64,000 nucleotides of DNA from an uncultured Thermoplasmata archaeon (GCA_963773945.1 CAVZDD010000005.1:377077-441076), one strand, 5' to 3'. Numbered from the stretch's first letter, positions 10,490-56,056 are shown. Numbers and translations: made by a program. Notes: a model not told the origin generated them from the letters alone.

Positions 10490-11625
10490 GGCGTCGAGGG
10501 CGTCCCGGGCGTAGCGGGCCGTCGGTACAAAAGATACAGGAAGAAGAGGGCGCCGGTGAACGCCATCGGGACCCCCACGGGGACCTCGGTGCCCGGGAAT
10601 GCCACGAGGGCCAGGTCGCGGGCGCCGAGCACGAAGATCGCGCCCACCAGCGCGGACGCCGGGATGACGCGGCGGTAATCAACCCCGATGAGACGACGCA
10701 CGACGTGCGGCGATACGAGGCCCACGAACCCAATGATGCCGGCGAACGCGACCGCGAAGGAGGTACAGAGCGAAGCCAGGAGGATCGTCCGGATCCGGAC
10801 TTGCCGGGCGTTGACGCCCAGGCTCTGTGCCACCTCGGGACCCAACTGCAGTAGGTTCAGGTCCCGCCCGTATACCGCGAGGAGGGCGCCGGTCGCCGCG
10901 ACCCCGGCCAGGACGATGCCCACCTGGGTCCAGGTCGCCCCGTCCAATCCTCCCAGCAGCCAGAAACTCACCTGCAGATCACCGTTCACATTGTAGAGCA
11001 GCGCGAGCACCAGGAGCGCGGAAAAAAACGAGCTGAGAGCAACGCCCGTGAGCAGCAGGGTGGTCACCGAGCTCCTCGGGCTCCGGGCCGCCACCAGGAC
11101 GACCACGCCGGAAAAGAGCGCTCCTCCGAATGCGAACAACGGGAGCGTCAGGTTGGCCTCGGCGAGCCCGATGTGCAGCACGAAGAGCAGGGCCGCACCG
11201 ACCGCCGCGCCCGAAGAAAGTCCGAGAAGATACGGGTCCGCCAGGGGGTTACGGAACGTCCCCTGCAGGGAGGCGCCCGAGAGGCCGAGCGCCGCTCCGA
11301 CGAGCAGTCCAAGCAGCACCTGGGGAACGTAGTTTTCCCAGACGATCTGGATCAGGATCGCGCAGCGGCTCGCCGATAGCGACGGGACGGCGCAGGCCCC
11401 TCCGGGAAGCGCTCCTCCCAGAAGCCGTTGCGCCACAATCCCGAGGGTAGTGGAGTACGGGATGGGGACGTCGCCCAGTAGCACGGACCCGAGGATGAGC
11501 GCCCCGAGCCCCCCGAAAAGGACCAGGAGATTTCGTCGCGGAGCGTGCCGGACGACGTCAGGGGAAGCGGATTCCCGGGCCTCGCTCCGGAGGCCGAGGT
11601 GGCGGGAAGCGTCCCCCGCGACCAA
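10486..11625 (-). CDS. ABC transporter permease, FecCD family
   Basis: About 9-10 TM helices and FecCD-type conserved blocks. It is translationally coupled to the ATPase (overlap). Confidence 0.85.
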   Translation of the reverse strand: MVAGDASRHLGLRSEARESASPDVVRHAPRRNLLVLFGGLGALILGSVLLGDVPIPYSTTLGIVAQRLLGGALPGGACAVPSLSASRCAILIQIVWENYVPQVLLGLLVGAALGLSGASLQGTFRNPLADPYLLGLSSGAAVGAALLFVLHIGLAEANLTLPLFAFGGALFSGVVVLVAARSPRSSVTTLLLTGVALSSFFSALLVLALLYNVNGDLQVSFWLLGGLDGATWTQVGIVLAGVAATGALLAVYGRDLNLLQLGPEVAQSLGVNARQVRIRTILLASLCTSFAVAFAGIIGFVGLVSPHVVRRLIGVDYRRVIPASALVGAIFVLGARDLALVAFPGTEVPVGVPMAFTGALFFLYLLYRRPATPGTPSTP

Positions 11626-11629
11626 GGTC

Positions 11630-12682
11630 TTACGCGCCCGGCAGGTTCGGATAGAGGATCTGGATGAACATCGGGACGGACAGGACCATGGTCGGCCCCA
11701 CCTCCGTCATCACGGTGACATCGATGCCGGTCACATTCCCGTTCTGCACCGCGGGGATGCTCGACCAGTCGGGGCCGGCCTGGTACGCGGTCAGGTTGAT
11801 GCCGAAACCGGTTCCGTAGATGACCACCGACGGATTATCGAAGAGCACCTGGCTCCCGGAAAGTTCCGGCGACGAGGTGGGAGCGTTGCCCGCGATGTTC
11901 ACCCCGCCCGCCAGTTCGATGAGGGATTGCCCGAAGCTGCCGGGGCCGAACGTGTAGTACCCAGCGTCCGGTTCACCGGCGGCGATCGGGTAGAACGTCA
12001 TCAGTACCGATCGCAGGGCGGTGCCGTTGTTCGTCAGATTGGTCAGGAAGGACGAGGACTGGCTCAGGACCGTCTGCAGCTGGGTGACGAGGTGCGCCGA
12101 GGAGGCTCCGGCCCCGAAGATCGTCGCGGTCATCTCCACATCATACACGACGCTGCCGAGGGTGCTCGGGCCATAGAACACGACCGGAATCCCGTAGGTC
12201 GACGACCACTCCTCGAGTCCGGACACTTCGACGATGGTCGCGGCGAGGACGACCTGAGGGCTGAAGTCGAGCATGTCGGCCGAGCTTACGTGGGGATACG
12301 CCAGGATGCACATGGAAGGCGTCAGGTCCCAGAGAGTGACTTGGGCCGGGGCGTAGTCGCCCTCGAGGCCTCCGAGGGAGGCGTTCGAGCAGTCGATGCC
12401 CACGACGTGACTGCGCAACCCGAGGCGGTACATCGTATCCATGACACTGGGGCCCAGTACCACGGCCCGGGCGGGATTGGCCGGCAAGGTCACGGACCGA
12501 CCGAGATCGTCGGTTACAGTCACGGCGGAGTGCGCGGTCGAGGTGGGGCGGAGTTCGAAATAGACGGCAGTTCCTCCCACCGAGACGCCGGCGACGACGA
12601 CCGCCACGGCGATGACCAAACTCAGGGGAACCGCATGTCGAGGCGCCGGGCTCGGGACGCCCGGAGACGAATTCAAAGACAT
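11630..12682 (-). CDS. ABC transporter substrate-binding protein (iron-siderophore/cobalamin class III PBP), secreted/anchored
   Basis: N-terminal hydrophobic anchor followed by a Peripla_BP_2-like fold (RAVVLGPSVMDTMYRLGL, VVGID). Confidence 0.8.
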   Translation of the reverse strand: MSLNSSPGVPSPAPRHAVPLSLVIAVAVVVAGVSVGGTAVYFELRPTSTAHSAVTVTDDLGRSVTLPANPARAVVLGPSVMDTMYRLGLRSHVVGIDCSNASLGGLEGDYAPAQVTLWDLTPSMCILAYPHVSSADMLDFSPQVVLAATIVEVSGLEEWSSTYGIPVVFYGPSTLGSVVYDVEMTATIFGAGASSAHLVTQLQTVLSQSSSFLTNLTNNGTALRSVLMTFYPIAAGEPDAGYYTFGPGSFGQSLIELAGGVNIAGNAPTSSPELSGSQVLFDNPSVVIYGTGFGINLTAYQAGPDWSSIPAVQNGNVTGIDVTVMTEVGPTMVLSVPMFIQILYPNLPGA

Positions 12683-12699
12683 TGTAATTCAGGCAAACA

Positions 12700-12718
12700 C
12701 AGTTTACTATAAATCCTT
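12700..12718 (-). promoter_or_regulatory. archaeal TATA-box promoter for the ABC importer operon
   Basis: The minus-strand sequence GGATTTATAGTAAA lies 21-34 nt upstream of the ATG at 12682. Confidence 0.5.
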
Positions 12719-12760
12719 CTGGCCCAGGAACCTTGCCGCCGTCGGATTTCGGGGCGTCCC

Positions 12761-13678
12761 CTAGGGGTCGACGCGTTCGAACGCGTCGCCAGGACCGGAC
12801 CACCCGAACTCGTCCGGATGGAAGAGGTGGGCGAACAGCCGGGCCCCTTGCGCGACGCGGGGGCCCGGGCGGGAGACGTATGAATCGGCGTCCACGGCGA
12901 ACACGCGACCGTTCCGAACGGCGGGGATCGACTCCCAGCCGGGCAGGTCCTTCAACCGAGCCGCCTCCTCCCGGACCCGCGGTAAGTGATACCCGCACGG
13001 TGCTACGACCAGCACTTCCGGGGCCCACCGGAGCACCTCTTCCCACGGGATTCGGGTGGAGTCCACGCCCCGGTGCGCGAGGCCGTCCACCCCACCTGCC
13101 GCGTCGACCATCTCGGGCACCCAATGGCCCGCGCAGAAGACCGGGTCTACCCACTCCATGCAGAAGACCCGGGGGCGTGACAGTCCCCGAGCCGTTTCGG
13201 CCCGGAGTTCCGCCAGGTCGTCCTGCATCGAGGCCGTGAGGCGATTCGCCTCCGCTTCCCGCCCGGCATGGCTTCCGAGGTCGCGGATATTGTCGAAGAT
13301 CCCGTCCAGCGAGTGCGGCGTCATCCACAGGACCTTGGGAGGGGGATGCAGTCCGGCCAGCGCCCGGGTCACCTCGGTACCCGATGGGGCGCAGACTTGG
13401 CAGAGGTTCTGGGTCATCAGGAGGTCCGGGTGGGCGGCCCGAAGGATCTCCTCGTCCACGAGATAGAGCGTCCCCTGTTCGTGCACCTGGCGGCTTACCC
13501 GGGCGTCGATCTCCTTCGCCGAGAGCCCGGTCAGGTCGACGGCGAGGTGCACCACGACCGGCTTGGACCGGGCTTCGACGGGATAATCGCACTCGTGAGA
13601 GACCGCTCGCAGTTCGCCGCCAAGTCCGAGGGCATAGGCCATCTCGGTCGCGGCGGGCAAGAACGAGACGATGTTCAT
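12761..13678 (-). CDS. cytoplasmic BtuF-like (Peripla_BP_2) cobalamin/iron-complex-binding protein, no signal peptide
   Basis: An internal ATG (MNIVSFLPAATEMAYALGLGGELRAVSHECDYP) was chosen. The upstream part of the 438-aa ORF is Arg-rich and lacks a signal peptide. Confidence 0.65.
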   Translation of the reverse strand: MNIVSFLPAATEMAYALGLGGELRAVSHECDYPVEARSKPVVVHLAVDLTGLSAKEIDARVSRQVHEQGTLYLVDEEILRAAHPDLLMTQNLCQVCAPSGTEVTRALAGLHPPPKVLWMTPHSLDGIFDNIRDLGSHAGREAEANRLTASMQDDLAELRAETARGLSRPRVFCMEWVDPVFCAGHWVPEMVDAAGGVDGLAHRGVDSTRIPWEEVLRWAPEVLVVAPCGYHLPRVREEAARLKDLPGWESIPAVRNGRVFAVDADSYVSRPGPRVAQGARLFAHLFHPDEFGWSGPGDAFERVDP

Positions 13679-13816
13679 CGAGGGCGAGTCTCCATCGGGA
13701 CGGTGCCCGCCCGACGGGCTACGCCTAGAAGACTTCTCCGGGTCGGCGACGGCAGGTTTCATCCCGCACCATTTCTTTGCCCGCCCGCGCGGCCTCGAGG
13801 CGAGCTGGCGGTTCGA

Positions 13817-14812
13817 ATGACGACGACGACCGAAACGACGACGGAAACCTCTCCGGAACTCCGTCAAGCGGCGGCGGAGCTCCGGGAGCTGGTAATCCAG
13901 GCTACGGCGCGACGGCCCGCCCAGTGCATGCTGCTCTCCGGCGGACTTGACACCGCCGTCTTGGCGCCGCTTGCAGCGGCCGGCGGCATGCAGGCGGCCG
14001 TAACGGTGCTCACCGCTCCCGACGCCCCCGATCGCCCCTTCGCACAGACCATCGCCGTCAACCAGGGGTGGACGCATTCCGTCGTCGAAGCCTCTTTCGA
14101 GGATCTACTCATCGAGGTCGATTTCGTGGTTCGGACGCTCCGAACATTCGACCCAATGGAGATCCGGAACAGCATCGTGATCGCTCGCGGCCTCCGGGAA
14201 GTATCGCGTTTGGGCTACACCACGGCAATGACGGGCGATGCGGCGGACGAATTGTTCGGAGGGTACTCTTTCATGTGGGGCAAGAGCCCCGAGGAGTTCG
14301 AGGAGTATTCCCGGCGAATGGCCACCACGATGAAGTTCTCCTCGACCCTACTCGGCCACGCACTGGGCGTGGAGGTACGGGCCCCCTACACAGACCCCGA
14401 GGTGATCCGCTTCGCGACCAGACTTCCCAAGGCCCTCAAGGTGGCGCAACGCGACGGAGCGACCGTCGGGAAATGGGTCCTCCGCTGGGCCTTTCCCGAG
14501 TGCCCGAGCCGCTGGAGGCGAAAGGACGCGATCGAGGTGGGTTCCGGAGCGACCCGTCTCCCGGTCTGGTTCGCCGCGCGGATGCCTGCGGCGGTTCTTT
14601 CCGCCGAGCGGGATCGGATCGCCGGCGAGGACAGGATTGAGATCCGGGACGCCGAACACCTGGCGTACTACCAGGCGTTTCGGAAGGTGTTTCCCCGCGC
14701 CCTCTCTGAACGGACCGGGGGCGCGGAGGCGTGCGCCCACTGCGGATTCCCGCTTCCTCGCCCGGATTCCACGTTCTGCACCACTTGCGGGGCGTACCCG
14801 GCCCGACTCTGA
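13817..14812 (+). CDS. asparagine-synthetase-C-domain-like PP-loop ATP pyrophosphatase (no glutaminase domain)
   Basis: Start at MTTTTETTTE (ATG at 13817, frame verified). LSGGLDTAVLA PP-loop and a C-terminal Cys cluster (CAHCGF...CTTCG). Confidence 0.7.
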   Translation: MTTTTETTTETSPELRQAAAELRELVIQATARRPAQCMLLSGGLDTAVLAPLAAAGGMQAAVTVLTAPDAPDRPFAQTIAVNQGWTHSVVEASFEDLLIEVDFVVRTLRTFDPMEIRNSIVIARGLREVSRLGYTTAMTGDAADELFGGYSFMWGKSPEEFEEYSRRMATTMKFSSTLLGHALGVEVRAPYTDPEVIRFATRLPKALKVAQRDGATVGKWVLRWAFPECPSRWRRKDAIEVGSGATRLPVWFAARMPAAVLSAERDRIAGEDRIEIRDAEHLAYYQAFRKVFPRALSERTGGAEACAHCGFPLPRPDSTFCTTCGAYPARL

Positions 14813-14818
14813 GGCGCT

Positions 14819-15529
14819 GTGCCCGTCGACGTTTCCCCGCCTCGGAAGACGGCGGCGCCCCGCGCCATACTCTCGTGGAGCAGCGGAAAGGACGCCGCCT
14901 TTGCCCTCCACCGGGTGCGACAGGACCGCAGCTACGACGTGGTCGGGCTGCTCACCACAGTCGTGGCGTCGTCGGGCCGGGTGGCTACGCACGGAGTCCG
15001 AGGGGAGTTGCTCGCCCGACAGGTGGAGTCCATTGGGATTCCCCTCACCCGCGTTCGGCTCCCTCGATCCCCCTCGAACGTCGTCTACGAACGCGGGATG
15101 ACGATGGCGCTTCAGCCGTTCGTGGAAATGGGAATACGCCACGTGATCTTCGGCGACCTGTTCCTCGAGGAGATCCGCGCCTACCGGGAGCGTCAAATGT
15201 CGGAGCTGGGCCTGGAGTGCGTGTTTCCTCTGTGGAGGACCGACACGAATCTGTTGGCCCGCGAGATGCTCGGGGCGGGGCAGCGCGCCCGCCTGGTATC
15301 GGTCGACACCCGGCGACTACCGGCGTCATGGGCCGGCCGATCGTTTGACCGAGCGTTGCTGGAGGAGCTCCCCCCGGGGGTCGATCCGTGTGGCGAGAAC
15401 GGCGAGTTCCACACCTTCGTGACCGACGGGCCGGTGTTGCGGCACCCGGTGCGCGTCCGAGTGCAATCCGTCCGGGAGCGGGACGGTTTCGCCACGGCGG
15501 ACCTCCGCCTCGAAAATACGAGTGGCTGA
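14819..15529 (+). CDS. DUF71/Dph6-like (MJ0570 family) PP-loop ATP-binding protein
   Basis: AILSWSSGKDAAFAL PP-loop, with EFHTFV and GE...Y motifs typical of diphthine-ammonia-ligase-like proteins. It starts 7 nt after the preceding gene. Confidence 0.75.
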   Translation: MPVDVSPPRKTAAPRAILSWSSGKDAAFALHRVRQDRSYDVVGLLTTVVASSGRVATHGVRGELLARQVESIGIPLTRVRLPRSPSNVVYERGMTMALQPFVEMGIRHVIFGDLFLEEIRAYRERQMSELGLECVFPLWRTDTNLLAREMLGAGQRARLVSVDTRRLPASWAGRSFDRALLEELPPGVDPCGENGEFHTFVTDGPVLRHPVRVRVQSVRERDGFATADLRLENTSG

Positions 15530-15584
15530 GGGGTACCGTTCCCGCACAAAGCATAAGTCGAGGAGCGTCCCCGAGGGGACGGGA

Positions 15585-15746
15585 GGGAGCATAGGCTAAT
15601 CTGGCAGACCAGCGGGCTCCAGTCAGATCTCCCGCGAGGGGGATCTTTGCATTGGGTCAGCGGAGGGACGCTTCGGCGTACCGATGACGAGTGACTGGAG
15701 CGCGCGGAGAGACCCGCATATCGGGGTTCAAATCCCCGTGCTCCCA
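15585..15746 (+). tRNA. tRNA-Trp(CCA) with an 89-nt intron after nucleotide 37
   Basis: Hand-folded. Acceptor GGGAGCA/TGCTCCC and discriminator A. D-arm GGCT-AATCTGGCA-GACC. Anticodon stem GCGGG/CCCGC with loop CTCCAG|A. T-arm CGGGG-TTCAAAT-CCCCG. The intron occupies 15623..15711 and no CCA is encoded. Anticodon loop and T-arm are of the type known from euryarchaeal tRNA-Trp (recalled from memory, not aligned). Confidence 0.65.
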
Positions 15747-15971
15747 TTGCCCACGCCCGCATCGTAGCGTCAGCTCCAGACAATCCGGTCGCATTGGTCG
15801 GACCCCGCGACCCGCTGATCGTGGGGTCCCATTAGACAACCCTCATGGTAGAAAACGGTCGAACGCCCGTCGGGCACGGGGCCGTCGCGGAAAGTGCCCC
15901 TTTGAAATCCAGACGGGGATGCCGTTGATGAATCCGAGAGTTCTTGGCGTCATGTAACCTCAGGGTCGCCG

Positions 15972-16889
15972 ATGGATTCCTTGGACATCCGGCTCTTACG
16001 TGCGATGTTCGTAGGAAACATCCTGTCGATCGGGGGTTTCGACCCTAGACTGTCGATCCAGGAGCTCGCACGATCGGTCGGGGCCAGTCGAGTCACCGTG
16101 CGTCGCCGCCTCGCCCGTTGGCGAGATGAAGGTTTTTGCAAAAGGGTCACCACGTTTCCGAACCCGGACGCACTTGGAACCTCGTTTCAGATGCAGTCTA
16201 TCGCACTCGACCGGGGAAGAACACGGAGCCGGTCTGAGACCGCACTGGTCGACCTCCTGGAACCCGCGTTCCTCTTCCAATCCGAGGACATCTATACCCC
16301 TGTCCTCATCGTAGAGGCTCCTAAGGTCTCCGACCGCCGCCAGAGCAGTCTCCGTGAAGTTGATGGAGTGAATGTCCTCTGTCCCCCTCTACCGTTCCCA
16401 TGCCCATCTTCCTCGGTACCGCTCGGGCTGAGGGACTGGAAGATCATCCGGTCTATGCGCCGATTTCCCTTTCCCGATTGGCCCGCGGTGTCGAAGGAAG
16501 TGGGGCTGACGGTCCGCGGTTTGCAACGAAGGGTGGCACGTCTCACGCAAGGCAACGCCCTCATGTTCCATCCCGAGCTCGACTTTCGTCGTTCGTCCAG
16601 CCCGGTGGCCTGGGTTGGTGTCCTTTTCGGTAGGGACGTCGAGAAGGCGCTGTTTGAGAAGGACATGATCCAACGATACCCTGACCTCCTTCGCGTGGAG
16701 CCAATACGAACGGGAGAATGCCCACCGCATGTCCGAAATGGCAAGTGGATGACCCTGTGGAGGTCCAACCAAGCCTTTGGGCCGGTACGATCAGGGATCA
16801 GGAGAGAATCATGCGAAGCAGAAGCGGAGAATTCCACGGGTCACGACGATTCCGGCAAGCGACTCTGTCATTCTTGGTCGCAGGGGTGA
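15972..16889 (+). CDS. tandem-HTH transcriptional regulator (two Lrp/AsnC-type HTH modules)
   Basis: LDIRLLRAMFVGN...IQELARSVGASRVTVRRRLARWRDEG, followed by a second module DWKIIRSMRR...VSKEVGLTVRGLQRRVARL. The 3' end overlaps the next gene, so the true stop or frame is uncertain. Confidence 0.5.
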   Translation: MDSLDIRLLRAMFVGNILSIGGFDPRLSIQELARSVGASRVTVRRRLARWRDEGFCKRVTTFPNPDALGTSFQMQSIALDRGRTRSRSETALVDLLEPAFLFQSEDIYTPVLIVEAPKVSDRRQSSLREVDGVNVLCPPLPFPCPSSSVPLGLRDWKIIRSMRRFPFPDWPAVSKEVGLTVRGLQRRVARLTQGNALMFHPELDFRRSSSPVAWVGVLFGRDVEKALFEKDMIQRYPDLLRVEPIRTGECPPHVRNGKWMTLWRSNQAFGPVRSGIRRESCEAEAENSTGHDDSGKRLCHSWSQG

Positions 16890-17572
16890 TGGTCTTTGCC
16901 ACGTTCATCGCGCTGGCGTTCGCACCGACGGCCGGAGCCACATCGCTGGCGCCCATCTCCCAGCAGAATGCAGCGCTGGACTGTTCACCTACCCTCGCAC
17001 AGGTCGAGGGGATCCCGGTGCCGGCCGGATCGAAAGTCATTCTCCACGTCTCTTTCGTAGACACAAACGTCGAAGACGGAGGGAATCTCGGCTATTGGGC
17101 TCTTGACACGTTGTACTTTACTGACACCTTTTGGCAGGCGACCGACGGGTCAATATATTTTCATCTTTCCATCGTGGGGACTTGGACCACCTTCGCTGGG
17201 GCGTTGAGCCCCCAGCAGGGGGTCACCGAGCCGAAGACCGGAAGCGGGCTGCTTATCTGGGAATTTTCCGGCCACTCCGTCACGGCCTTTGAGCCTGGCT
17301 CACGTCCGACGTCAGGCTTCATTGGGGTGTTTAACGCCGGTGGAACCGAATCTGACATCCTCTTGGGAACGTACGCGCTCCAACAGGGTAACAACGCATT
17401 TTTCAACTCTGATGGGGGAGACATTGGCCCCCTCTACTTCGATTTCACCCCCCCCTACCCCATCTTCCTCGCCCTAGCGTTCTCCGAAATTTACTTCTTG
17501 CACGGTTCCCCGGCCGATTGCTACGCAGGCACGCTGACTAGTTTCATCTTTGAGGGGGACGTCGTAACGTAA
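16811..17572 (+). CDS. secreted hypothetical protein (signal peptide/N-terminal TM), lower-GC
   Basis: An internal start at MRSRSGEFHGSRRFRQATLSFLVAGVMVFATFIALAFAPTAGA gives a signal-like N-terminus. The Gly/Thr/Phe-rich body is unlike the surrounding genes. Confidence 0.5.
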   Translation: MRSRSGEFHGSRRFRQATLSFLVAGVMVFATFIALAFAPTAGATSLAPISQQNAALDCSPTLAQVEGIPVPAGSKVILHVSFVDTNVEDGGNLGYWALDTLYFTDTFWQATDGSIYFHLSIVGTWTTFAGALSPQQGVTEPKTGSGLLIWEFSGHSVTAFEPGSRPTSGFIGVFNAGGTESDILLGTYALQQGNNAFFNSDGGDIGPLYFDFTPPYPIFLALAFSEIYFLHGSPADCYAGTLTSFIFEGDVVT

Positions 17573-18163
17573 CACGGTCTTGACGGGAGCCTGGAGGCCC
17601 CCTAGGTATCGCGCAGAGCAGCTATCAGACTGAGGCGAGAGACTCAGCCCCGATCGGACAGCCTCAGCGCCGGCGTCGATTGGAAAGCTCGGTTCCCTGA
17701 AGGGGTAACCCGGCCGGAGAGCGACCGGGGAGGTAGCATTACGGCCTCGTACTCACTACGAGCCTACCAATCGGCGTCGTGAGGGGGGAACGGCCCCTCT
17801 GTCTCGTCTAGGCTCGTGGAAAGTTTTCTGACCGGAGCATCCGCAGCTAGGGCCACTGATCGATCAAGCTGGTCAGGGCCGAGCAGTTTCGTTGGCGTAG
17901 AGATTCTCGGTTCACCTAGCTGACCTTACCACTGCGTTGACAACGGACCCCTTTCTAGAGGTCACAAGACCTGGCCGCGCGCTAGGGCGCCCCCGCATGA
18001 GGGACTCCCGAACCCACCGGGCTGACTCCGTTCAATTCGATTTTTCCGCGGCCTTCTACCGCCGGTAGTAAGATATTGGGGACCCACAAAATGGGGTGGG
18101 AACCCGTGCTCCCACCCTCCCCCCCGCCAGAACCTGCATGCAGGGGCCCGACCGGCACGGGTA

Positions 18164-19036
18164 CTATCGCGGGGCGGCCTTGCGGACCCGGGTGCGAGTC
18201 TCCGGGTGATCCGGCTCATCGTTGGCTTGGAATCGCCGGGGTTGACGGCCGTCTTCATCCTTGAAACCGTAGCGGCGAGCGAGATCCCCAACGTAGAGGA
18301 TCCGGCCCGAAAGTCTTGCGACGTTCGGGTCCCCCGCCAGCGCCACGACCGCCTTTCCGAGGTAACTGGGCGATTCAGTAGGAGCCAGGTCGAAGGGGTG
18401 GGCCCGATGGGCCGCCATCACCCGTTCCGTACGCATGAATCCTGGTGCCAAGGCAACGGCCTGGATTCCATGGGACTTCAGTTCCATCGCCATTCCTCGG
18501 GCCATCCGAATCATAGCGTTCTTCGCCACGTCGTAGTACAAGTTCCCCAGATAGCCGCCGCTCAGCCACGCAACGGTGTTCACGATGAGCCCCTTCTTTC
18601 GCGGGAGCATGAGTGGAACGAGTCGTGCCGACGTGAGAAGAGTCGCGCGAACTCCCGCGGTAAACATCCCTTCCCAGTGGTGGGTCGGCTGCTTCCAGAA
18701 AGGGTCCCCAAAGGTCGCAAGGTCGTGCCGCTCGTACCCTCCCCAGACGTTGTTCACTAACAGGTCCGGAGGGTGGCCGAGTTTCGTGATGGTGGCCACC
18801 AGGCGGTAGATTTCCGCCAATTGCGTGTGGTCGCATACGACAGGGATTCCATGGCCACCAGCGGCGTCAATTCCCGCGGCGGTCTCTTCGACAGTCCCCC
18901 CCAGTCCTTCGGAGTCGGGACGTCCTCGCGTGCTGCGCCCCGTCACAAATACCGTCCAACCGCCGCTGCCCAGCTGGAGAGCGATGGCCTTTCCCCCTCC
19001 GCGAGAAGCTCCGGTCACTACCGCTGTACGCGCCAT
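18164..19036 (-). CDS. SDR-family short-chain dehydrogenase/reductase
   Basis: TGASRGGGKAIA Rossmann motif and YxxxK (YYDVAK). Confidence 0.85.
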   Translation of the reverse strand: MARTAVVTGASRGGGKAIALQLGSGGWTVFVTGRSTRGRPDSEGLGGTVEETAAGIDAAGGHGIPVVCDHTQLAEIYRLVATITKLGHPPDLLVNNVWGGYERHDLATFGDPFWKQPTHHWEGMFTAGVRATLLTSARLVPLMLPRKKGLIVNTVAWLSGGYLGNLYYDVAKNAMIRMARGMAMELKSHGIQAVALAPGFMRTERVMAAHRAHPFDLAPTESPSYLGKAVVALAGDPNVARLSGRILYVGDLARRYGFKDEDGRQPRRFQANDEPDHPETRTRVRKAAPR

Positions 19037-19213
19037 GTCTCCGTTCGTTCTCGACGCCGAACGATAACCCTGAGCTTGAAGGACGGGTGGGGGTGGCGAA
19101 ACAGGGTGTGGACGAACATGTTCCCGCTGGGGGTTGCTGCGTGGCTGGCTGCGCGGGCTCCCCTCGCCTCGCTGGAAGACTTATCGCCGACGGGATTTCT
19201 GGGAGTCTCCGTC

Positions 19214-19963
19214 ATGAAGAACTCACTCAGGAAGCGTCTCGTCTCTTCCAAGGAACCCTGCTTCGGCACCTGGATCTCGTCGTCCTCGCTGGTGAACCTC
19301 GATGCCCTCAAGGGGATGGGGTTCGAGTGGTTCATGATCGACACCGAACACGCTCCCGTGAACCCCGAGACCCTGGCCGCGATGGTCGCGATATTGACCG
19401 ACCACGGTCCCACGCCTCTCGTACGGGTCGGGAACATCGACCAGTACCTGGTCAAACAGGCCCTGGACTCGGGCGCGCACGGTGTACTCGTTCCGTTGGT
19501 GAGTACGGAGGCCCAGGCGAAGGCGGCCGTCGCCTATGCCAAGTACCCCCCGGAGGGAGTGCGGGGAGCCGCGGCGGCGGCCGCCTCCCGATACGGCCTG
19601 GAACTCGCGTCCTATCTCCGGAGCGCCAACGCCGAGACCCTCGTCGGGGTACAGATCGAGACCAAAGAGGCGTTGGACAACCTCGAAGCGATTGCGGCCG
19701 TTACGGGCGTGGACATCCTGTTCGTCGGGCCCCAGGATCTCACGCTGAGCCTGGGTCTCCTGGACGACCGAAAAAACCCCAGAGTGCGGGAGGCCATGCG
19801 CTCCGTCGTAGCGGCGTGCGATCGGCACGGCAAGATTCCCGGGACGTTGGTCATCGACCCTGAAGAAAAGCGAATCGCGGTCGACCTGGGCTTCCGATTC
19901 ATCTCGCTGGCGTCGGATGTACGATTCCTGATCGACGGTGCCCGAGCCTATCGAGCCGCTTGA
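19214..19963 (+). CDS. HpcH/HpaI family 2-keto-3-deoxy-acid aldolase
   Basis: An internal ATG at 19214 (MKNSLRKRL..., frame verified). Motifs FGTWI, EWFMIDTEHAP and LVRV are typical of the family. Confidence 0.8.
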   Translation: MKNSLRKRLVSSKEPCFGTWISSSSLVNLDALKGMGFEWFMIDTEHAPVNPETLAAMVAILTDHGPTPLVRVGNIDQYLVKQALDSGAHGVLVPLVSTEAQAKAAVAYAKYPPEGVRGAAAAAASRYGLELASYLRSANAETLVGVQIETKEALDNLEAIAAVTGVDILFVGPQDLTLSLGLLDDRKNPRVREAMRSVVAACDRHGKIPGTLVIDPEEKRIAVDLGFRFISLASDVRFLIDGARAYRAA

Positions 19964-20048
19964 TTCGTGGCCCACGGAGGGCGAGCGCCGCCGAAGGAGA
20001 CGCCCGGCGGAGCGACGGACGTTTCTAGCGGGCTCCGGGAGAGGCGGC

Positions 20049-20321
20049 TTACGAAGTCGGCATCGGGGCGTTCGAGTGCGCCGGGTAGCAGCGATTGTAG
20101 AGGTACGCGAAAATCGCCACGTAAATGACCACGGCGCCCACGAGGGCGACGATGATGGAGCCGTCTATGCCCAGAGGTCCGTCGGGAGACACATAACCCA
20201 ACATGGTCGCCAGCATGATGGTGGCGATCAGTCCCACGATCACTTGGGTCGTGGTGGGTCGGCGTGTGTAGAATACGAGAGGGATGAGGCCCGGGAGAAA
20301 CTTCGGCGCGACGCGAGCCAC
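20049..20321 (-). CDS. small hypothetical membrane protein (2 TM)
   Basis: Hydrophobic C-terminal two-thirds. The start was placed at an internal GTG because the annotated M would overlap the divergent neighbour. Confidence 0.25.
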   Translation of the reverse strand: MARVAPKFLPGLIPLVFYTRRPTTTQVIVGLIATIMLATMLGYVSPDGPLGIDGSIIVALVGAVVIYVAIFAYLYNRCYPAHSNAPMPTS

Positions 20322-20403
20322 GACCGCTAATAAGCATGAATTTCCCGGGCCCGGACTCCGACGTGTTATAGCCGAGCGAGAGTCCGGCAGCTGGAGGAGC
20401 ACC

Positions 20404-20943
20404 GTGGGACTCGACATCTCCGTGGTCACCATCACGGCCGCCGCCACCTGGGGCCTCGCGGTGGGGACCGTCGTACTGCTCTGGTGGCAAACCCGGGTCT
20501 CTCAGCGACTCAACAGCGCGAACGCGGTCCTGACGCTTCGGGAGCGATTCGATTCCCCCGCGTTTCGTCGGCGTCGGAAAGGGCTCGCGGATCGATTGCT
20601 CGCCGGGCGCCATGACGACATCACCAACTTGGAGGTCGCGGCATTCTTCGAACTGATCGGCTCGCTCACGCATGCCCGGGTCCTGGACCGCTACTTGGTA
20701 TGGGAAGCGTTCGGAACCTGGATCAACGGCTACTACTACGCGCTCCGCAATCCCGTGGACGTGATCGGCCGGGCTCGTACCGCGCTCAAGGACCCCCTGA
20801 TCATGCACGAGTACGAGTGGCTCTACGGACTGGTCCAGCAGATGGACCGCAAGATGATGGACGCCGAAGCCGACATGGCGGAGGCGACCCGCGATGAGTC
20901 CACGGCCCTGCTGCGCCGAGAGGCCGAGCTCGAACCGGACTGA
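20404..20943 (+). CDS. DUF4760-like protein, N-terminal TM anchor (paralog of 50308..50823)
   Basis: GTG start. N-terminal TM (ISVVTITAAATWGLAVGTVVLLWWQ) followed by a conserved core shared with the second copy (FESRSF/YQYEL vs FDSPAF, DRYL/DYLL, WEAFGTW vs DFMRYTVV). Confidence 0.5.
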   Translation: MGLDISVVTITAAATWGLAVGTVVLLWWQTRVSQRLNSANAVLTLRERFDSPAFRRRRKGLADRLLAGRHDDITNLEVAAFFELIGSLTHARVLDRYLVWEAFGTWINGYYYALRNPVDVIGRARTALKDPLIMHEYEWLYGLVQQMDRKMMDAEADMAEATRDESTALLRREAELEPD

Positions 20944-21028
20944 ACGGGGATCGACCGGGAGCGGGTGCGACTGGACGAGCCTCCGGTCATGTTCTATATG
21001 GGGAGCGGTCGACCTAGGTGGAGAAGAG

Positions 21029-21193
21029 ATGACCACGGTCTGCGAGACGCCCGGCTGTCTGCATCAGCGCCGATTGCACGGGGAGGACGGACATTGTCGG
21101 GCCTGTGCCTGCACCGTGTACACCCGGACCGGTCCGGGCCACCAAACGAAAGCGGCGAGAAAGCAGGCGGCCCAAGCCCTTCGTAGCTGGTAA
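21029..21193 (+). CDS. small Cys/His-rich (zinc-ribbon-like) protein, 54 aa
   Basis: MTTVCETPGCLHQRRLHGEDGHCRACACTVY..., preceded by GGTGGAGAAGAG. It falls below the ORF-track size cut-off in this frame segment. Confidence 0.3.
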   Translation: MTTVCETPGCLHQRRLHGEDGHCRACACTVYTRTGPGHQTKAARKQAAQALRSW

Positions 21194-21316
21194 ACCCGAG
21201 CCGAAGACGGCGGTACGGCCAACCGCTATCGCCTGCGGGAAGCCACGGCCCTTGCATGCGGGATGAAATACCCCCGCCCTGTTGGCTTCGGAAGGCCCGC
21301 AGGAGCGAAGAATTTC

Positions 21317-22057
21317 ATGAAACTCACCTTTCTTGGCACAGGCGCCGGGAACTTTCAGGGTAGCCGCCGGCATATGTCCAGTGCGCTGTTCGAGGGGGTC
21401 CTTCTCGACTGTGGGGCAGGAACGACCGGCCGCCTGTACGATGCCGGGTTGCTCGAACGGGTCGACGGCATTCTGATCTCGCACCTGCACTCCGACCACT
21501 TCGCCGGGCTCTTCGATTTCCTGTTGCACACCCTGATCTCTGGCCGGAAGCGGCCGCTCACGATCGTCTCTCCCCCGGGGCTGGCGCCCATACTGCGAGC
21601 GGCGATCAACGTCGGAGCGATGGTCAAGGACCCGGCCGATCTCTATGAGTTTCACTTACTCGAGGCGCTCCGCCCCGATGTGACGATCGGTCCGTGGCGA
21701 GTGCAAGGTATTCCGTTGGTCCACAGCGTGTACAACCTCGGGTACCACCTCGCCGCGGACGGTGCGTCCCTCTTCTACACGGGCGACACGCGTCAGCCAT
21801 CGGTGCCGGAAGGCGTCCGCGCGGACTTCGTCATCCACGAGTCAACCTACGCGGACCGGCATGTGCAGCTCGCCCACGAATTCGGACACTCCACTGCCTC
21901 CCAAGCCGCGAAAGCGGCGACCGCGATGGGGGCCCGGCGATTGTTCCTGACCCATCTCGGGAGCCAGGAGGGTACCGACGCCGAAGTTCTCCGCGAAGTC
22001 CGCGCGGGATTCCGCGACTCGACGGTCGCCGAGGACAATAGCCAACACGACCTCTGA
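21317..22057 (+). CDS. MBL-fold metallo-hydrolase
   Basis: HLHSDH motif (ILISHLHSDHFAGL) and downstream His/Asp ligands. Start at MKLTFLGTGAG (ATG at 21317 verified). Confidence 0.8.
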   Translation: MKLTFLGTGAGNFQGSRRHMSSALFEGVLLDCGAGTTGRLYDAGLLERVDGILISHLHSDHFAGLFDFLLHTLISGRKRPLTIVSPPGLAPILRAAINVGAMVKDPADLYEFHLLEALRPDVTIGPWRVQGIPLVHSVYNLGYHLAADGASLFYTGDTRQPSVPEGVRADFVIHESTYADRHVQLAHEFGHSTASQAAKAATAMGARRLFLTHLGSQEGTDAEVLREVRAGFRDSTVAEDNSQHDL

Positions 22058-22084
22058 ACCGCCCTCCACGGCGGCGCCTCGAGC

Positions 22085-23464
22085 TCAATCGCGTCGTCGA
22101 ACGTCGGCGGCGACTCGGAGGATCGCGGCGAGCGACCGATCCATGTCCTCGGTCGTGGTGGCCCACGAGCTGACACTGATCCGCATGGCCGTCCGACCCT
22201 GCCAGCGCGTGCCGCCACACCAGCAGGTGCCGTCCGATTGCACCCCCGAGACGACTCGCGCGGTGGTGGCGTCATCCCCGAACGCCACCACCACCTGATT
22301 CAGGACAACTTCGTTCAGCACGTCGTAACCGGCCGCCCGGAGACCATCAGCGATGTGGGAAGCGTGGCGGCAGGTCCGCTCCACCAGGTCTGCGATGCCG
22401 GCCCGCCCAAGGGAGCGAATCGCCGCCCAGGCCTCCACCCCCCGGGCCCTTCGGGACAGTTCGGGCGTAAAGTGCGAGGGCTCCCGCTGGCCACTCTGTA
22501 CGAGATACTCAGCCGGCCCGATCGACATGGCGGCGCGGAGGTGTTCCGGCTTTCGGACAAACACCATGCCGCTGTCGTACGGGACGTTGAGCCACTTGTG
22601 ACCGTCCGCCGCCCAGGAGTCGGCGAGGGCCATCCCTTCCGTCAGATGGCGATACGAGGGGGCGACGGCCGCCCAGAGGCCAAAGGCCCCGTCGACGTGC
22701 ACCCACGCCCCACTCTCCTTCGCGCGGGGGTAGATCTCTCGGATTGGGTCGAACCCGCCGCCGTTCACGTTGCCCGCCTGGACCAAGACGATGGAAGGCC
22801 CCGATAACCGAGGCAGAGCGTCCGCCCGCATCCGACCCTGCGAGTCGACCGGAACGCGAACGACCCGCTCCCGCCCGAGACCCAGCATGGAGACAGCCTT
22901 CAACACCGTGGCGTGAACCTCCTCCCCGACCACCACGGTGATGGGTGGAGCGCCGGCCAGCCCTTGATCCTCAACGTCCCAACCGACCTCGGCCAGCACG
23001 GCGTGGCGCGCGGCCGCGAGCGCCACAAAGTTTGCCATCGTATCGCCGGTCAGGAACGCGCCTTCGGCTCCCTCCGGAAGGCCGAGGAGCTCGCGCGTCC
23101 ATCGAAGGGAGATCTCCTCCAGACGGGCCCCGACGGGAGACGTCGCGAAGAACGCTGCATTCTGATTCCACGCGCCGGCCATCCAGTTCGCTCCCAGCGC
23201 CGCGGGGAGTGCGCCGCCGATCACGAATCCGAAGTACCGCCCTCCGGCCGACCCGATGGCGGCGGGCGACCCCACCTCGTCGAGCATCTGGATCACCTTG
23301 CCCGGGTCGGTGCCCGCGTCCGGCACCGGCCCATCAAGCAGATCGAGACGTCGGACCTCCGCGTCCGTCGGACCGACCCGTCGATCCCGAAGGCCCCGCA
23401 GGAACCGAAGGCTCCGCTCGGTCGCCTCGCGGAGTACAGATTGGGTTTCCACGTCGTCGGGCAT
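22085..23464 (-). CDS. PLP-dependent group II amino-acid decarboxylase
   Basis: Fold-type I signature with PLP-lysine motif (SWAADGHKWLNVPYDSG). Confidence 0.85.
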   Translation of the reverse strand: MPDDVETQSVLREATERSLRFLRGLRDRRVGPTDAEVRRLDLLDGPVPDAGTDPGKVIQMLDEVGSPAAIGSAGGRYFGFVIGGALPAALGANWMAGAWNQNAAFFATSPVGARLEEISLRWTRELLGLPEGAEGAFLTGDTMANFVALAAARHAVLAEVGWDVEDQGLAGAPPITVVVGEEVHATVLKAVSMLGLGRERVVRVPVDSQGRMRADALPRLSGPSIVLVQAGNVNGGGFDPIREIYPRAKESGAWVHVDGAFGLWAAVAPSYRHLTEGMALADSWAADGHKWLNVPYDSGMVFVRKPEHLRAAMSIGPAEYLVQSGQREPSHFTPELSRRARGVEAWAAIRSLGRAGIADLVERTCRHASHIADGLRAAGYDVLNEVVLNQVVVAFGDDATTARVVSGVQSDGTCWCGGTRWQGRTAMRISVSSWATTTEDMDRSLAAILRVAADVRRRD

Positions 23465-23671
23465 CCGGAACTTCCCCCTCGCTCGGGCGGGGCCTCCGCC
23501 TGAATCGGGGGGTGCCCTTCAATCTGACGCTCGGCCTCCCATCCAAGCGGGCCCGGTAATCCGGTTCCGGTTCACGGGCTTTATGTCCCGGGTCGCGGTG
23601 CCCCTCCGAGCCAGGGACGACGCGCTCTTACCTCGGAGTGCGCGGCCGCCCATCGTGGCGGAGAATCGAAC

Positions 23672-24262
23672 GTGAGCACCCGCGGAATGTACGTCGTCAT
23701 CGAAGGGATTGATGGGACGGGCAAGACCGAGCTGGCCTCGCGCCTCGTGCCCGCGCTGCTCGGACGCGGCCACTCCATTTCCAGCTTCCACGAGCCCGCT
23801 GACAAATTCCTGCGGGAGGAGTTCCAGCGACTCAAGAAGAGCGATTCGTTCGCCGCCGCCCTCTGCCTAACCGTTGATCGGGAGATGCTGCGACCGCAGG
23901 TGGAGCGAGCCCTCGAGCACGGGGACGTGGTCGTCCAGGACCGGTCGTTCTACTCGACGCTGGCCTATCAGTACGCCGCCCTGAGCAGCGACCGTTGGCG
24001 CGAACTAGAGCGGATCGAGCTCGCGCTCGCCCTCGAGCCGGACATCGTCCTCTATCTCGACGCCCCCGTCGACCTTGCCGTGAAGCGGGTGGAGGCGACG
24101 GGACAGTTGGACCCGGACGAGGGGCCCCAGTACATCGAACGCGTCCGGCGAAAGTTCGAACAGATGTTTCAACCGCCTCGGTGGGTCCGGGTCGATGCCA
24201 AGGGCACCCCGGAGCGGACCCATCAGCTCGCGATGAACCTGTTGATGGCCGCCGGACTCTAG
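23672..24262 (+). CDS. tmk: thymidylate kinase
   Basis: P-loop IEGIDGTGKT, DRSFYSTLAYQ and LID region. Confidence 0.8.
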   Translation: MSTRGMYVVIEGIDGTGKTELASRLVPALLGRGHSISSFHEPADKFLREEFQRLKKSDSFAAALCLTVDREMLRPQVERALEHGDVVVQDRSFYSTLAYQYAALSSDRWRELERIELALALEPDIVLYLDAPVDLAVKRVEATGQLDPDEGPQYIERVRRKFEQMFQPPRWVRVDAKGTPERTHQLAMNLLMAAGL

Positions 24263-24307
24263 GACCCCCCGCCGCCTTCCGGCCGACAGTCGCCGGCCGT
24301 AGGTGAA

Positions 24308-25069
24308 ATGCCCCGCTCCATCCCCGCGTATGAACCCTTATCCGACCGACCGTTTTGGAGGGCGCCAGGGAGAAAAGTGCCCGCGACCGAGGAGAACGAC
24401 GCGAAGTTCACCCCCGATTCTTTCCGATTCCTCCGGGAACTTGCGCAGCACAACAACCGGGAATGGTTTACCGCCAACAAGGCACGCTACGAGCAGACCG
24501 TCCGGGACCCGTCATTTGCCTTCGTCCGCGCCGTCGGTACTCCCCTGGCGAAATTGAGCCGCCATTTGGTGGCGGATCCCCGACCCGTCGGGGGATCGAT
24601 CATGCGGATCTACCGGGACATCCGATTCTCGAAAGACAAGAGTCCGTACCGCACTTCGATCGGGATCCATTTCTCGCACGAGGGGACGGGTGGGGAGGAG
24701 GAACACCTGCCCGGGTTCTTCCTGCGCCTCGCTCCCGGCGACTCGTGGTTGTACTCCGGAGTGTGGCAACCGGAACCCGCTCGGCTCCATCAGATCCGGA
24801 AGGCGCTGATCGAGCGGTCGGCCGAATGGAAGCGGGTCCGGGCCGCCGTTCCACCCATCGAGGGCGAATCCCTCAAGCGACCGCCGCCCGGCTTCGACCC
24901 CGCCCATCCCCTCATCGAGGATCTCAAGCGCAAGGGATTCACGTCCGGGCGCTCCATCAAGGACTCCACGGTGACGGGAACGTCATTCCCGGAGGAATTC
25001 GTGAAGCTCTGTCGATCGCTCGACCCGCTGAATCGCTTCCTCGCCCGGGCGATGGGCGTCGACTACTGA
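24308..25069 (+). CDS. DUF2461/TIGR02453 family protein
   Basis: FLRELAQHNNREWFTANKARYE, IMRIYRDIRFSKDKSPY and GFFLRL blocks. Confidence 0.75.
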   Translation: MPRSIPAYEPLSDRPFWRAPGRKVPATEENDAKFTPDSFRFLRELAQHNNREWFTANKARYEQTVRDPSFAFVRAVGTPLAKLSRHLVADPRPVGGSIMRIYRDIRFSKDKSPYRTSIGIHFSHEGTGGEEEHLPGFFLRLAPGDSWLYSGVWQPEPARLHQIRKALIERSAEWKRVRAAVPPIEGESLKRPPPGFDPAHPLIEDLKRKGFTSGRSIKDSTVTGTSFPEEFVKLCRSLDPLNRFLARAMGVDY

Positions 25070-28410: not shown

Positions 28411-28475
28411 GTCCCAATGTCCAGGTCTACACCGCGACGTTCACGACCGCATGAAGGTGGTGGTCGAGGGCATAC

Positions 28476-28778
28476 TCAGTGAACGGCCTCGGGGCCTCCC
28501 CGAACGGCTTTCGGTACGTAATCGAAGAATTTCTCCGTTCGACCCTCCGCCGTCCACTCGGCCCGTAGCCGGGTCCGCCGCTCGACCCGGCGCAGTTCGG
28601 TCAGCAGGGACCGGTTCAATTCCGGGGCGCTGTCCCCCTCCTGCTCTGCCTGCAGCACGAGCTCTTTGGGGTCCCCGGTGAGCGTTACGGAAGCCTCCGG
28701 AAACAGCCGCCGCAGGACCGGCCGGATGGCTGCCGGGTCCTCCGTATGGATCTTCGCCCGGATGATGAAGTGCGGCAC
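28476..28778 (-). CDS. hypothetical small protein
   Basis: Only the C-terminal ~100 aa (VPHFIIRAKIHTED...) avoids overlap with the upstream gene. The GTG start is inferred. Confidence 0.25.
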   Translation of the reverse strand: MPHFIIRAKIHTEDPAAIRPVLRRLFPEASVTLTGDPKELVLQAEQEGDSAPELNRSLLTELRRVERRTRLRAEWTAEGRTEKFFDYVPKAVRGGPEAVH

Positions 28779-28830
28779 GGGTGTAGCGCCGGGACCGGAC
28801 GCCGCGGATTCGTAAGGAGATTGCGCTCGC

Positions 28831-55419: not shown

Positions 55420-55603
55420 GCCCGGCGCCTAACTCATGCACTCAATATGAACTTGGAGGGGACAGTCTATCCAAACTACCGAAGGTTCGACCGCAGGCCC
55501 CTCAAGCTTCGGGGGTGTAAACGCTCGAAATGCGTCCAATCCGCAATGCACCTTCGGGGGTGCGGGCCCTAGCAATCGCCCCGAAATGGGAAGAAAGGCC
55601 TCT

Positions 55604-56056
55604 CTACCAGTCGTAGGGGGATCGAAGATCGTGCCCGTTTTCAAGGACCGACTTGAGGTTCATCATGAAATACGTCCAACCCCGGATGGCCCCCTCGTAG
55701 AGATCGGTCCACGCGCTTCCGCGTCGGAATCCGGAGTGAGTAAACCGCAGAATAGTTCCGCCGCTATGAGGTTCGACGGACAGTTTCAATCTCGTAACGC
55801 CCAGTTTCTCCAAGCCGGGCCACTGCCAAGTCAACACTAGCTGTCTTCCACGAACGAACTGCACAACCTTCCCTGTATGAGTTGGGCCGCCTTCCCAAGC
55901 AAATGAGTAGCTCCCGCCTCTCCGCGCTGAAAGCGTAGCCTGGTCCATGAACCAACGGGTAAGAACTTTCGGTTCACTGATCGCCTTGAACACCCTCTTA
56001 GGTGACGCGTGAATGAAGATGGGCAACCGGATGGTCCGAGAGCCAGACGTCGACAT
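55604..56056 (-). CDS. SRPBCC (AHSA1-like) domain protein
   Basis: IFIHASPKRVFKAISEPKVLTRWF signature. Confidence 0.75.
   Translation of the reverse strand: MSTSGSRTIRLPIFIHASPKRVFKAISEPKVLTRWFMDQATLSARRGGSYSFAWEGGPTHTGKVVQFVRGRQLVLTWQWPGLEKLGVTRLKLSVEPHSGGTILRFTHSGFRRGSAWTDLYEGAIRGWTYFMMNLKSVLENGHDLRSPYDW

Follow-up and report, generated by a model that had tools for sequence, protein, structure and literature searches.

A small insertion at the 3' end of a tRNA-Trp gene and a putative family of cassettes without a recognised recombinase gene in soil Thermoplasmata

Cis-mobilizable elements (CIMEs) possess intact attL and attR sites, lack genes for integration and transfer, reside at the 3' end of a conserved gene or of a tRNA gene, and accrete in tandem by means of the integrase of another element (PMC6323972). 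For archaeal tyrosine integrases, att sites of no more than 11-14 bp are documented, and the insert lies between direct repeats, as for SNJ2, whose att core of 13-14 bp lies within a tRNA gene, and for Msmi-Pro1, with 11 bp (PMC8371274). Casposons of family 2 also occupy tRNA genes, and the casposase of A. boonei recognises the T-loop motif TCAAATC together with a CC where the leader meets the target-site duplication (TSD) (PMC6614799, PMC4779613). The locus described here is part of a 64,000-nucleotide stretch of DNA, hereafter called the window, from an uncultured Thermoplasmata archaeon (GCA_963773945.1 CAVZDD010000005.1:377077-441076). Immediately downstream of its tRNA-Trp gene, an islet of lower GC content is enclosed by two copies of the 12-bp sequence CCCGTGCTCCCA, which represents the end of the tRNA. 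This islet is a cleanly bounded insertion that segregates in the species and is absent from near-identical sister strains. Sequence comparisons place it in a recurrent family of cassettes without a recognised recombinase gene, located at tRNA-Trp in soil Thermoplasmata. The explanation that we favour, with a probability of roughly 0.6, is that the islet represents a non-autonomous, site-specific cassette moved in trans by a tyrosine integrase acting on a lambda-like attP. As no description of such a family was found in the literature searched, it appears to be previously undescribed.

The 12-mer takes in the T-stem's final 4 nt together with the 3' acceptor strand and the discriminator. Its exact recurrence, reported in a first-pass annotation made from the sequence of the window, was confirmed. 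Exact copies are found in the window only at the two positions given in Table 1, and the identity between them ends at exactly 12 bp on both sides. The only near-copy (40257-40268, one mismatch) lies within an IS630-like transposase gene and appears to be coincidental. Based on the base composition of the window, the chance of encountering a specific 12-mer within 2.4 kb is about 5e-4, close to the order of 1e-4 proposed in that annotation. The repeat alone is inconclusive, because an unrelated pair of exact 13-mers is present in the same 4 kb. The composition of the enclosed segment is unusual as well, in line with the earlier remark that it is less GC-rich than its surroundings. Over its 2,356 bp the GC content is 0.593, compared with 0.642 for the window (SD 0.026 among windows of the same size), which puts it among the 2.4% of such windows that are poorest in GC, and in tetranucleotide usage it deviates as well (distance in the top 3.2%). 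The GC content at third codon positions is 0.65-0.69 in its two genes, versus 0.75-0.87 in most neighbouring genes.

What settles the insertion is that sister strains have empty sites. When the short-chain dehydrogenase/reductase (SDR) protein encoded to the right of the islet was looked up by exact match, it led to L001, a 2.0-Mb contig whose SDR and Dph6-like genes are 267 bp apart, rather than 2,635 bp as in the window; the distance of 267 bp also separates Dph6 from an identical SDR protein in the empty-site strains. In BLAST alignments, positions 1-10934 of L001 correspond to 29034-18103 of the window and positions 10923-20873 to 15746-5797. In L001, L343 and L344, the two flank alignments overlap by exactly the 12-mer. 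The boundaries of the indel fall precisely on the repeat, and the empty sites hold a single copy of it. The Dph6-like gene is syntenic in these three strains, with 99.8-99.9% identity. The direct succession of tRNA-Trp and the SDR gene, a comparison that the first-pass annotation had put forward, is seen in four same-species assemblies, including the short contig L346. A second occupied allele, L345, is collinear with 17314-19351 of the window, and it therefore spans attR, not attL. Two Logan contigs with the Dph6 allele of the window (L341 and L342) end inside exon 2 of the tRNA, before the T-arm, and are uninformative on occupancy.

Sequence variation around the junction bears on the history of the two alleles. 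Within the 6 kb to its right (18103-24539), the window differs from L001 at only two positions. A single-nucleotide polymorphism (SNP) at 18124, 10 nt outside the distal core, separates the six alleles by state: both occupied ones carry C, and the four empty ones carry T. The SNP at 18485 assorts independently of occupancy. Since the former is linked to the islet and the latter is not, a single insertion may have taken place, after which the occupied allele spread between strain backgrounds by homologous recombination. The SNP pattern gives no evidence for recent precise excision. Farther away, about 60 differences from L001 are packed into 600 bp (28411-28995), in a tract that L343 and L344 lack and that looks like the product of homologous recombination with a diverged donor. 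It might be argued that the 12-mer is a chance repeat in vertically inherited DNA, and that the empty strains arose by slipped-strand or microhomology-mediated deletion. Pairs of exact 12- to 13-mers do occur by chance in this GC-rich DNA, and polymorphism alone is silent on the direction of change. However, the repeat is the 3' end of a tRNA, the islet is compositionally foreign, and the presence of T at 18124 in the four empty alleles and of C in both occupied ones argues against repeated recent deletions. Furthermore, in many genomes this 12-mer marks the ends of units that sit at the same site and have homologous arms, and it is never found upstream of the site, which makes a fortuitous repeat extremely improbable.

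Those units came to light in a scan of metagenomes with the 3' 24-mer of tRNA-Trp, which yielded 120 loci of Thermoplasmata from peat and soil. Over the 3.5 kb that follow the tRNA (248 kb in total), there are 9 exact copies of the core, and 17 if one mismatch is allowed, distributed over 12 loci; the 3.5 kb upstream (243 kb in total) contain none. The core-bounded units measure 842-2,428 bp. They are found singly or, in loci L108, L134 and L149, as tandem arrays of two or three units separated by the core. Each is organised in the order core, left module, cargo of one or two genes, right module, core. The left module is a non-coding sequence of about 120 nt that begins with TTTCCTCCCAT.GCGGGAATCCCGGTC, and the right module, of about 190 nt and also non-coding, ends with CCCGC.....GGGTGGGAA. 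In profile searches, the left module was found directly after the tRNA in 16 loci, and 10 right modules were found in 8 loci, each directly before a core. The orientation of the modules is uniform, with about 30 profile hits all pointing the same way. The arms of the window islet can be aligned with those modules. Its right arm matches the right-module profile (Table 1), shares blocks with L097, L134, L149 and L118, and ends in a hairpin, CCCAC....GTGGG, followed by GGGTGGGAA, which abuts the core. Its left arm shares motifs such as CCCATTAGACAACCCTC with the family in a MAFFT alignment. In the window, the 120 loci and the other loci inspected, the arm profiles had no match away from the position downstream of tRNA-Trp, always next to the same core.

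Conservation of the arms contrasts with replacement of what lies between them. Between L108 and L118, the arms are 75-79% identical, i.e. about as much as the flanking genes (79%), whereas the cargo genes fall outside every alignment, as does the intergenic DNA that separates the last core from the gene after it. The arms have no conserved reading frame, no convincing RNA consensus fold (-14 kcal/mol, with a covariation term of +0.43) and no Rfam match, and a short covarying hairpin next to the core is their only fold signal. They are thus taken to be functional sites at the level of DNA. The cargo is unrelated between units and is encoded on either strand; by eye, its products appear to be secreted and membrane proteins along with an alpha/beta-hydrolase, a methyltransferase and a glyoxalase. 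Behind the last core of each array lies a pyrimidine-rich flank, CCTCCCCC, and the same flank follows the tRNA itself in 74 distinct cassette-free loci. The GC content of the 13 other units that were measured is 0.606-0.657, below that of at least one flank, and it is below that of both flanks (0.635-0.682) wherever at least 800 bp of flanking sequence are present. In three other loci, upstream open reading frames (ORFs) look by eye like periplasmic-binding proteins. One unit of 842 bp, in L198 (+1 to +842), has arms and no obvious cargo ORF. L184 (+1 to +3012), where a second, exact copy of the 12-mer closes off a segment encoding an IS630-like transposase and a membrane protein, was not counted as a member of the family, as it has neither conserved arms nor the pyrimidine-rich distal flank.

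The origin of the cargo is best documented for the window islet. Homologues of its secreted protein, with 64-76% identity, share contigs with homologues of its regulator, and the two genes form a module found at ordinary chromosomal sites in related archaea (L002 and L089-L091). There, no tRNA lies close by, and the neighbouring genes annotated with Pfam include no integrase. The closest of these modules, L002 (81-83% identity), shows DNA homology that is confined to about 15905-17760 and starts only at about 15905-15910. Neither end of the islet (15747-15905; about 17760-18102) is related to L002. In L002 (12557-14374) and L090 (4315-6246), the module lies directly beside a gene for a guanylate cyclase with TPR repeats, two paralogues of which are found in the window (34201-36141 and 45375-47150); the cyclase-adjacent position may be the native neighbourhood of the module.

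The first-pass annotation had described a tandem-HTH regulator whose gene overlaps that of a secreted protein. The first helix-turn-helix (HTH) and the overlap, which amounts to 79 nt, hold, and the second HTH is weakly supported (HTH_24, E = 0.12). The regulator is conserved to near position 16703, after which its last 60 codons or so are an unrelated read-through. Its homologues, of 320-350 residues, cover only 80-84% of the window protein, and their conserved C-terminal segment of about 80 residues is lost in the window copy. This copy is short by about 460 bp relative to L002, which removes those residues, and the gene has thus been truncated by a later internal deletion of that size. The secreted protein has no match in Pfam or NCBIfam; its AF2 model has a low pLDDT of 64, and a Foldseek search of the PDB returned nothing with an E value below 0.3. 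The 591 nt that follow its gene (17573-18163) contain no credible ORF, in agreement with the estimate of about 590 nt made at first. They include some 150 nt (17761-17912), between the tail of the module and the right arm, without assignment.

That the islet is what is left of a tRNA-targeting element that has lost its integrase was the interpretation of the first-pass annotation. In a fuller form, it would be the decayed remnant of a once autonomous plasmid or provirus that integrated into tRNA genes and lost its integrase and most other genes by deletions. Parts of this description stand, namely a site-specific insertion flanked by intact attL and attR, the absence of an integrase, and internal decay, of which the deletion in the regulator gene is a demonstrable case. 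The unassigned 150 nt are compatible with it, and erosion seems to be common at this site, since L113, L146, L160 and L166 have kept a left arm and have lost the right arm and the distal core. The loss of an integrase of its own may apply to this copy, in which decay is visible, but across the family, given its uniformity, it is the less likely account. At least 14 units with unrelated cargo would each have to have arrived on their own at the same outcome, that is, small size, retained arms and missing mobility genes. In none of the 120 loci is the site occupied by an integrase-bearing relative, and the cargo corresponds to a chromosomal module rather than to genes of plasmids or viruses. Consistent with this, the virus and plasmid search envisaged for the islet returned no match: BLAST found none in phage and plasmid collections, and viral contigs scanned for the tRNA end, the predicted attP junctions and the arm motifs gave nothing, or chance hits without tRNA context or profile match. 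According to Pfam and NCBIfam, neither of the two genes of the islet encodes an integrase, and no integrase-like frame was seen by eye in six-frame translations of its non-coding parts. With at least 13 other units that are equally small, and with arms that, in the pair compared, are about as conserved as coding genes, elements that are non-autonomous by design fit better than independent decay, and a remnant in the above sense is unlikely.

How a tyrosine integrase would handle such a cassette can be outlined. As no recombinase gene is recognised in any unit, insertion must occur in trans, through an enzyme encoded elsewhere. The attP would have a lambda-like layout, with a right arm of about 190 nt, the 12-bp core and a left arm of about 120 nt. 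Insertion via CCCGTGCTCCCA would rebuild the tRNA's 3' end at attL and leave a second core at attR, and the circular form would carry the junction ...AAAATGGGGTGGGAA-CCCGTGCTCCCA-TTGCCCACGCCC.... In the case of the window, the cargo would be the two-gene chromosomal module with the Lrp-like regulator and the secreted protein, the former truncated by the later internal deletion. We infer the action in trans, the class of the recombinase and the circular intermediate. Two properties of the units fit this scheme, their single orientation of insertion and their right end, GGGGTGGGAA-CCCG, which loosely resembles the tRNA T-arm, GGGGTTCAAATCCCCG. Such a resemblance is expected of an attP and unexpected of a transposon end.

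The termini of the units can also be read in another way, in which the 12-mer is a TSD generated by a staggered-cutting casposase (Cas1-solo) or DDE transposase supplied in trans, and the ends are terminal inverted repeats (TIRs). The units would then be cargo-carrying, non-autonomous transposons, similar to casposons or to miniature inverted-repeat transposable elements (MITEs). Indeed, the left end of the family reads TTTCCTCCCAT..GCGGG and the right end, as reverse complement, TTCCCACCC....GCGGG, so that the two face each other as imperfect inverted repeats, and in the window TTGCCCACGCC faces TTCCCACCCC in an imperfect inverted repeat that abuts the core. About 9 of 11 nt are matched, with an extension to about 22 nt, which is equally compatible with inverted core-type att sites. 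In contrast, the long and asymmetric arms (about 120 and 190 nt) recall the P and P' arms of an attP, and the inverted repeat covers only some 11-22 nt of them. The duplication has a constant length of 12 bp in type A and type B units, and the target shows no dyad symmetry on the B side. Casposons provide a precedent, in that those of Thermoplasmatota and Methanosarcina hit tRNA 3' ends, produce TSDs of fixed length and form tandem arrays that share one TSD (PMC6614799, PMC4779613). At the present site, too, the 12-mer opens with CC right after TCAAATC. Nevertheless, known casposon TSDs measure 14-15 bp or more, and the TIR of A. boonei ends with TCCCC rather than GGGAA. Casposons at tRNA-Leu are inserted in both orientations (PMC4779613), unlike the tRNA-Trp modules. 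None of the units is accompanied by Cas1, PolB or a transposase, the arms occur only at tRNA-Trp in the sequence searched, and the loosely T-arm-like right end is also at odds with a transposon terminus. All in all, transposition by such an enzyme is a minority possibility, but a serious one, somewhat less improbable than decay from an autonomous element.

The type B ends deserve a description of their own. They occur in L093 (+1633 from the tRNA end), L148 (+1382) and L108 (+1213 and +2115), and consist of an imperfect core, 21 nt, TCCCCCCGGGGGGTGCGGAAA, and a perfect core, the 21 nt resembling a left terminus fused to a right terminus. The resulting mini unit of 33 bp has the appearance of two fused termini between two cores, as an excision might leave behind, and in this respect speaks for the TSD alternative. 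L118 and L148 share a hydrolase cassette, and only L148 has the mini unit, which could be a footprint, a minimal element or a part of an arm.

Returning to the tyrosine integrase explanation, several observations weigh against it. The inverted repeats at the ends of the element lie 12 bp apart, compared with the usual 6-8 bp of a tyrosine recombinase overlap region, and the B side of attB has no matching half-site. The left arm of the window matches the left-module family weakly (E = 0.0066), though blocks are recognisable. The polymorphism among strains, given the linkage to SNP 18124, is by itself no proof of recent site-specific activity. The machinery is also missing from the sequences searched. 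No site-specific recombinase was detected among 30 ORFs of the window submitted to Pfam, none in the Pfam-annotated loci of the sister strains (the equivalent of about 5.8-29 kb of the window and about 10 kb past its left end), and neither integrase nor Cas1 was recognised by eye among the ORFs of the 120 loci. Similarly, these loci, the window, and the viral, plasmid and phage collections yielded neither a free or circular form nor an autonomous relative. The sole transposase among the 30 window ORFs is the IS630-like one mentioned above (DDE_3 plus HTH domains; 39913-41034, plus strand). A contig scan with the Dph6-like protein returned, among the matches listed, proteins of at most 59% identity, and those from Thermoplasmata had no tRNA-Trp nearby.

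Comparison with the described systems helps to place the family. Like the CIMEs of Firmicutes, the islet has an intact attL and attR and no genes for integration or transfer, and tandem accretion at the same att site is seen in the three array loci, not in the window. In contrast, CIMEs are bacterial and are viewed as derived by deletion from integrative and conjugative elements (ICEs), with a known cognate ICE, while the host here is archaeal and no autonomous partner is known. In addition, the tRNA-Trp units are smaller (0.84-2.4 kb, one or two genes) and combine long conserved arms with swapped cargo. Integrons have reportedly been described in archaea by Ghaly and co-workers in 2022. As generally known, integron cassettes, like the tRNA-Trp units, form arrays of small units with unrelated cargo, no recombinase of their own and a recurring recombination sequence on one chromosomal platform, and their cargo is similarly enriched in secreted or membrane proteins and small enzymes. 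Unlike integrons, the tRNA-Trp platform has no adjacent intI, which is not among the neighbours of tRNA-Trp in the window (Dph6-like and SDR), and a tRNA 3' end takes the place of attI. Asymmetric arms totalling about 300 nt around a 12-bp core also differ from an attC hairpin of 60-140 nt with R and L boxes, as do cargo genes on either strand. If a tyrosine integrase is responsible, the cassettes would be archaeal analogues of CIMEs or of integron cassettes.

The remaining systems differ mostly in what they encode. Elements of the SNJ2 and Msmi-Pro1 type have in common with the islet a short core of identity, direct repeats and an empty attB in a close relative, but they are viruses or plasmids of many kilobases with their own integrase, and the islet and its relatives encode none. 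SSV-type ('suicidal') elements would leave Int(N) and Int(C) frames across attL and attR, which the islet lacks; the ORFs that cross its cores (15691-15957, plus strand; 17962-18291, minus strand) look by eye like Arg-rich off-frame artefacts, without split int frames. Integrative mobile elements exploiting Xer (IMEXs), generally known from the CTX/TLC/RS1 arrays at dif that depend on the host Xer, are likewise recombinase-less and accumulate in tandem at one site through an external enzyme; here the site is the end of a tRNA gene, not dif. Insertion sequences and MITEs would place the arms at multiple sites with TSDs of their own, and the arms occur only by the same core after tRNA-Trp. Casposons are several-fold larger than cassettes of 1-2.4 kb. 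Those of family 2 (A. boonei, Methanosarcina) resemble the units in their Thermoplasmatota or euryarchaeal hosts, in their location at a tRNA 3' end by TCAAATC (PMC6614799, PMC4779613), in their fixed-length duplication, in inverted termini, which are imperfect in the units, and in tandem arrays that share the duplicated sequence. They differ in that the tRNA-Trp units have no Cas1 or PolB (Cas1-solo and PolB are found neither in the islet nor in the scanned window ORFs nor in the related loci), a duplication of 12 bp rather than 14-15 bp, a single orientation and a different terminal sequence.

Table 1. Features of the tRNA-Trp region of the window (positions counted from its first nucleotide) and state of the site in near-identical strains
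Feature	Position or source	Strand	State of the site	Support
Dph6-like (Diphthami_syn_2) gene, chromosomal left flank	14819-15529	+		Pfam, 3.1e-31
tRNA-Trp(CCA), putative attB	15585-15746	+		ARAGORN with intron option; Rfam tRNA model, 42 bits (permissive run)
tRNA-Trp parts	exon 1 15585-15621; intron 15622-15710 (89 nt); exon 2 15711-15746	+		
Proximal 12-bp core (attL), CCCGTGCTCCCA	15735-15746	+		exact repeat
Left arm of putative cassette, non-coding, divergent left-module member	15747-15905	+		nhmmer profile, E = 0.0066 over 15735-15863
Lrp/AsnC-like regulator, C-terminally truncated, 305 aa	15972-16889	+		Pfam HTH_AsnC-type, 1.7e-8 (N-terminal)
Deletion scar	16702-16762	.		blastn: 60 bp here vs 519 bp in L002 (10731-11250)
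Secreted or membrane-anchored beta-rich protein, 253 aa	16811-17572	+		N-terminal signal or anchor sequence
Non-coding tail of two-gene module	17573-17760	+		L002 homology: blastn to 17705, MAFFT to about 17760
Right arm of putative cassette, non-coding	17913-18102	+		nhmmer right-module profile, E = 2.5e-7 over 18033-18114
Distal 12-bp core (attR), CCCGTGCTCCCA	18103-18114	+		exact repeat; sister-strain alignments (L001, L343, L344) overlap there
Chromosomal B' flank, pyrimidine-rich, CCCTCCCCC...	18115-18163	.		
SDR oxidoreductase gene, chromosomal right flank	18164-19036	-		Pfam adh_short, 1.2e-25
L001	ERZ25039507 contig_6243		empty	99.25-99.84% identity to window
L343	GCA_049280255.1, Thermoplasmata archaeon		empty	99.90% identity to window
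L344	GCA_049581325.1, Thermoplasmata archaeon		empty	99.93% identity to window
L346	short contig		empty junction	99.84% identity to window
L345	short contig, another sample		occupied, attR side only	2 mismatches in 2,038 bp

The tRNA-Trp gene of the window is interrupted by an intron after position 37. Because of this intron, the gene is missed by ARAGORN with default settings and by an Rfam run at gathering thresholds. Its 3' end is the discriminator A at 15746, with no CCA encoded. The intron contains a box-C-like sequence, GATGACGA, followed at 15692-15705 by TGACTGGAGCGCGC, which is complementary to the anticodon stem-loop (15612-15625). Judging by its sequence, this element looks like the box C/D guide known from the introns of euryarchaeal pre-tRNA-Trp; in Rfam, however, it gives no more than a weak match to sR55. 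At the other end of the islet, the attR junction (18094-18117) forms an 8-bp inverted repeat, GGGTGGGA/TCCCACCC, in the occupied allele only. It is followed on the minus strand by CATTTTG, and it might terminate transcription of the convergent SDR gene. Elsewhere in the window, a stretch at about 55100-59000 has the lowest GC content (0.583) and the most deviant tetranucleotide usage. It carries AHSA1/START, DUF1275 and DUF7482 proteins as well as a 771-residue Ig-like protein, and it may be another acquired island.

A broader and more tentative proposal, which we regard as somewhat less probable than its negation, is that the 3' end of tRNA-Trp constitutes a cassette platform. An unlinked recombinase would capture, stack and perhaps exchange small circularisable units there, each with arms of about 300 nt on the two sides of a 12-bp core and with one or two genes as a swappable cargo. 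Such a platform would be functionally integron-like, or else its units might be the first cargo-carrying, non-autonomous elements of the casposon type, a form undescribed in either domain. As default tRNA finders miss the intron-bearing tRNA-Trp, the site as a whole may escape automated searches for islands that start from tRNA genes. If the proposal is correct, the combination of arm, 12-bp core and arm would provide a defined DNA substrate for finding the recombinase. It would also help to explain the small, lower-GC, integrase-less islets that adjoin tRNA genes and are usually set aside as products of decay. Most generally, the stacking of units of one or two genes at a tRNA gene would represent a second archaeal route, besides integrons, to the acquisition of genes in the form of cassettes.

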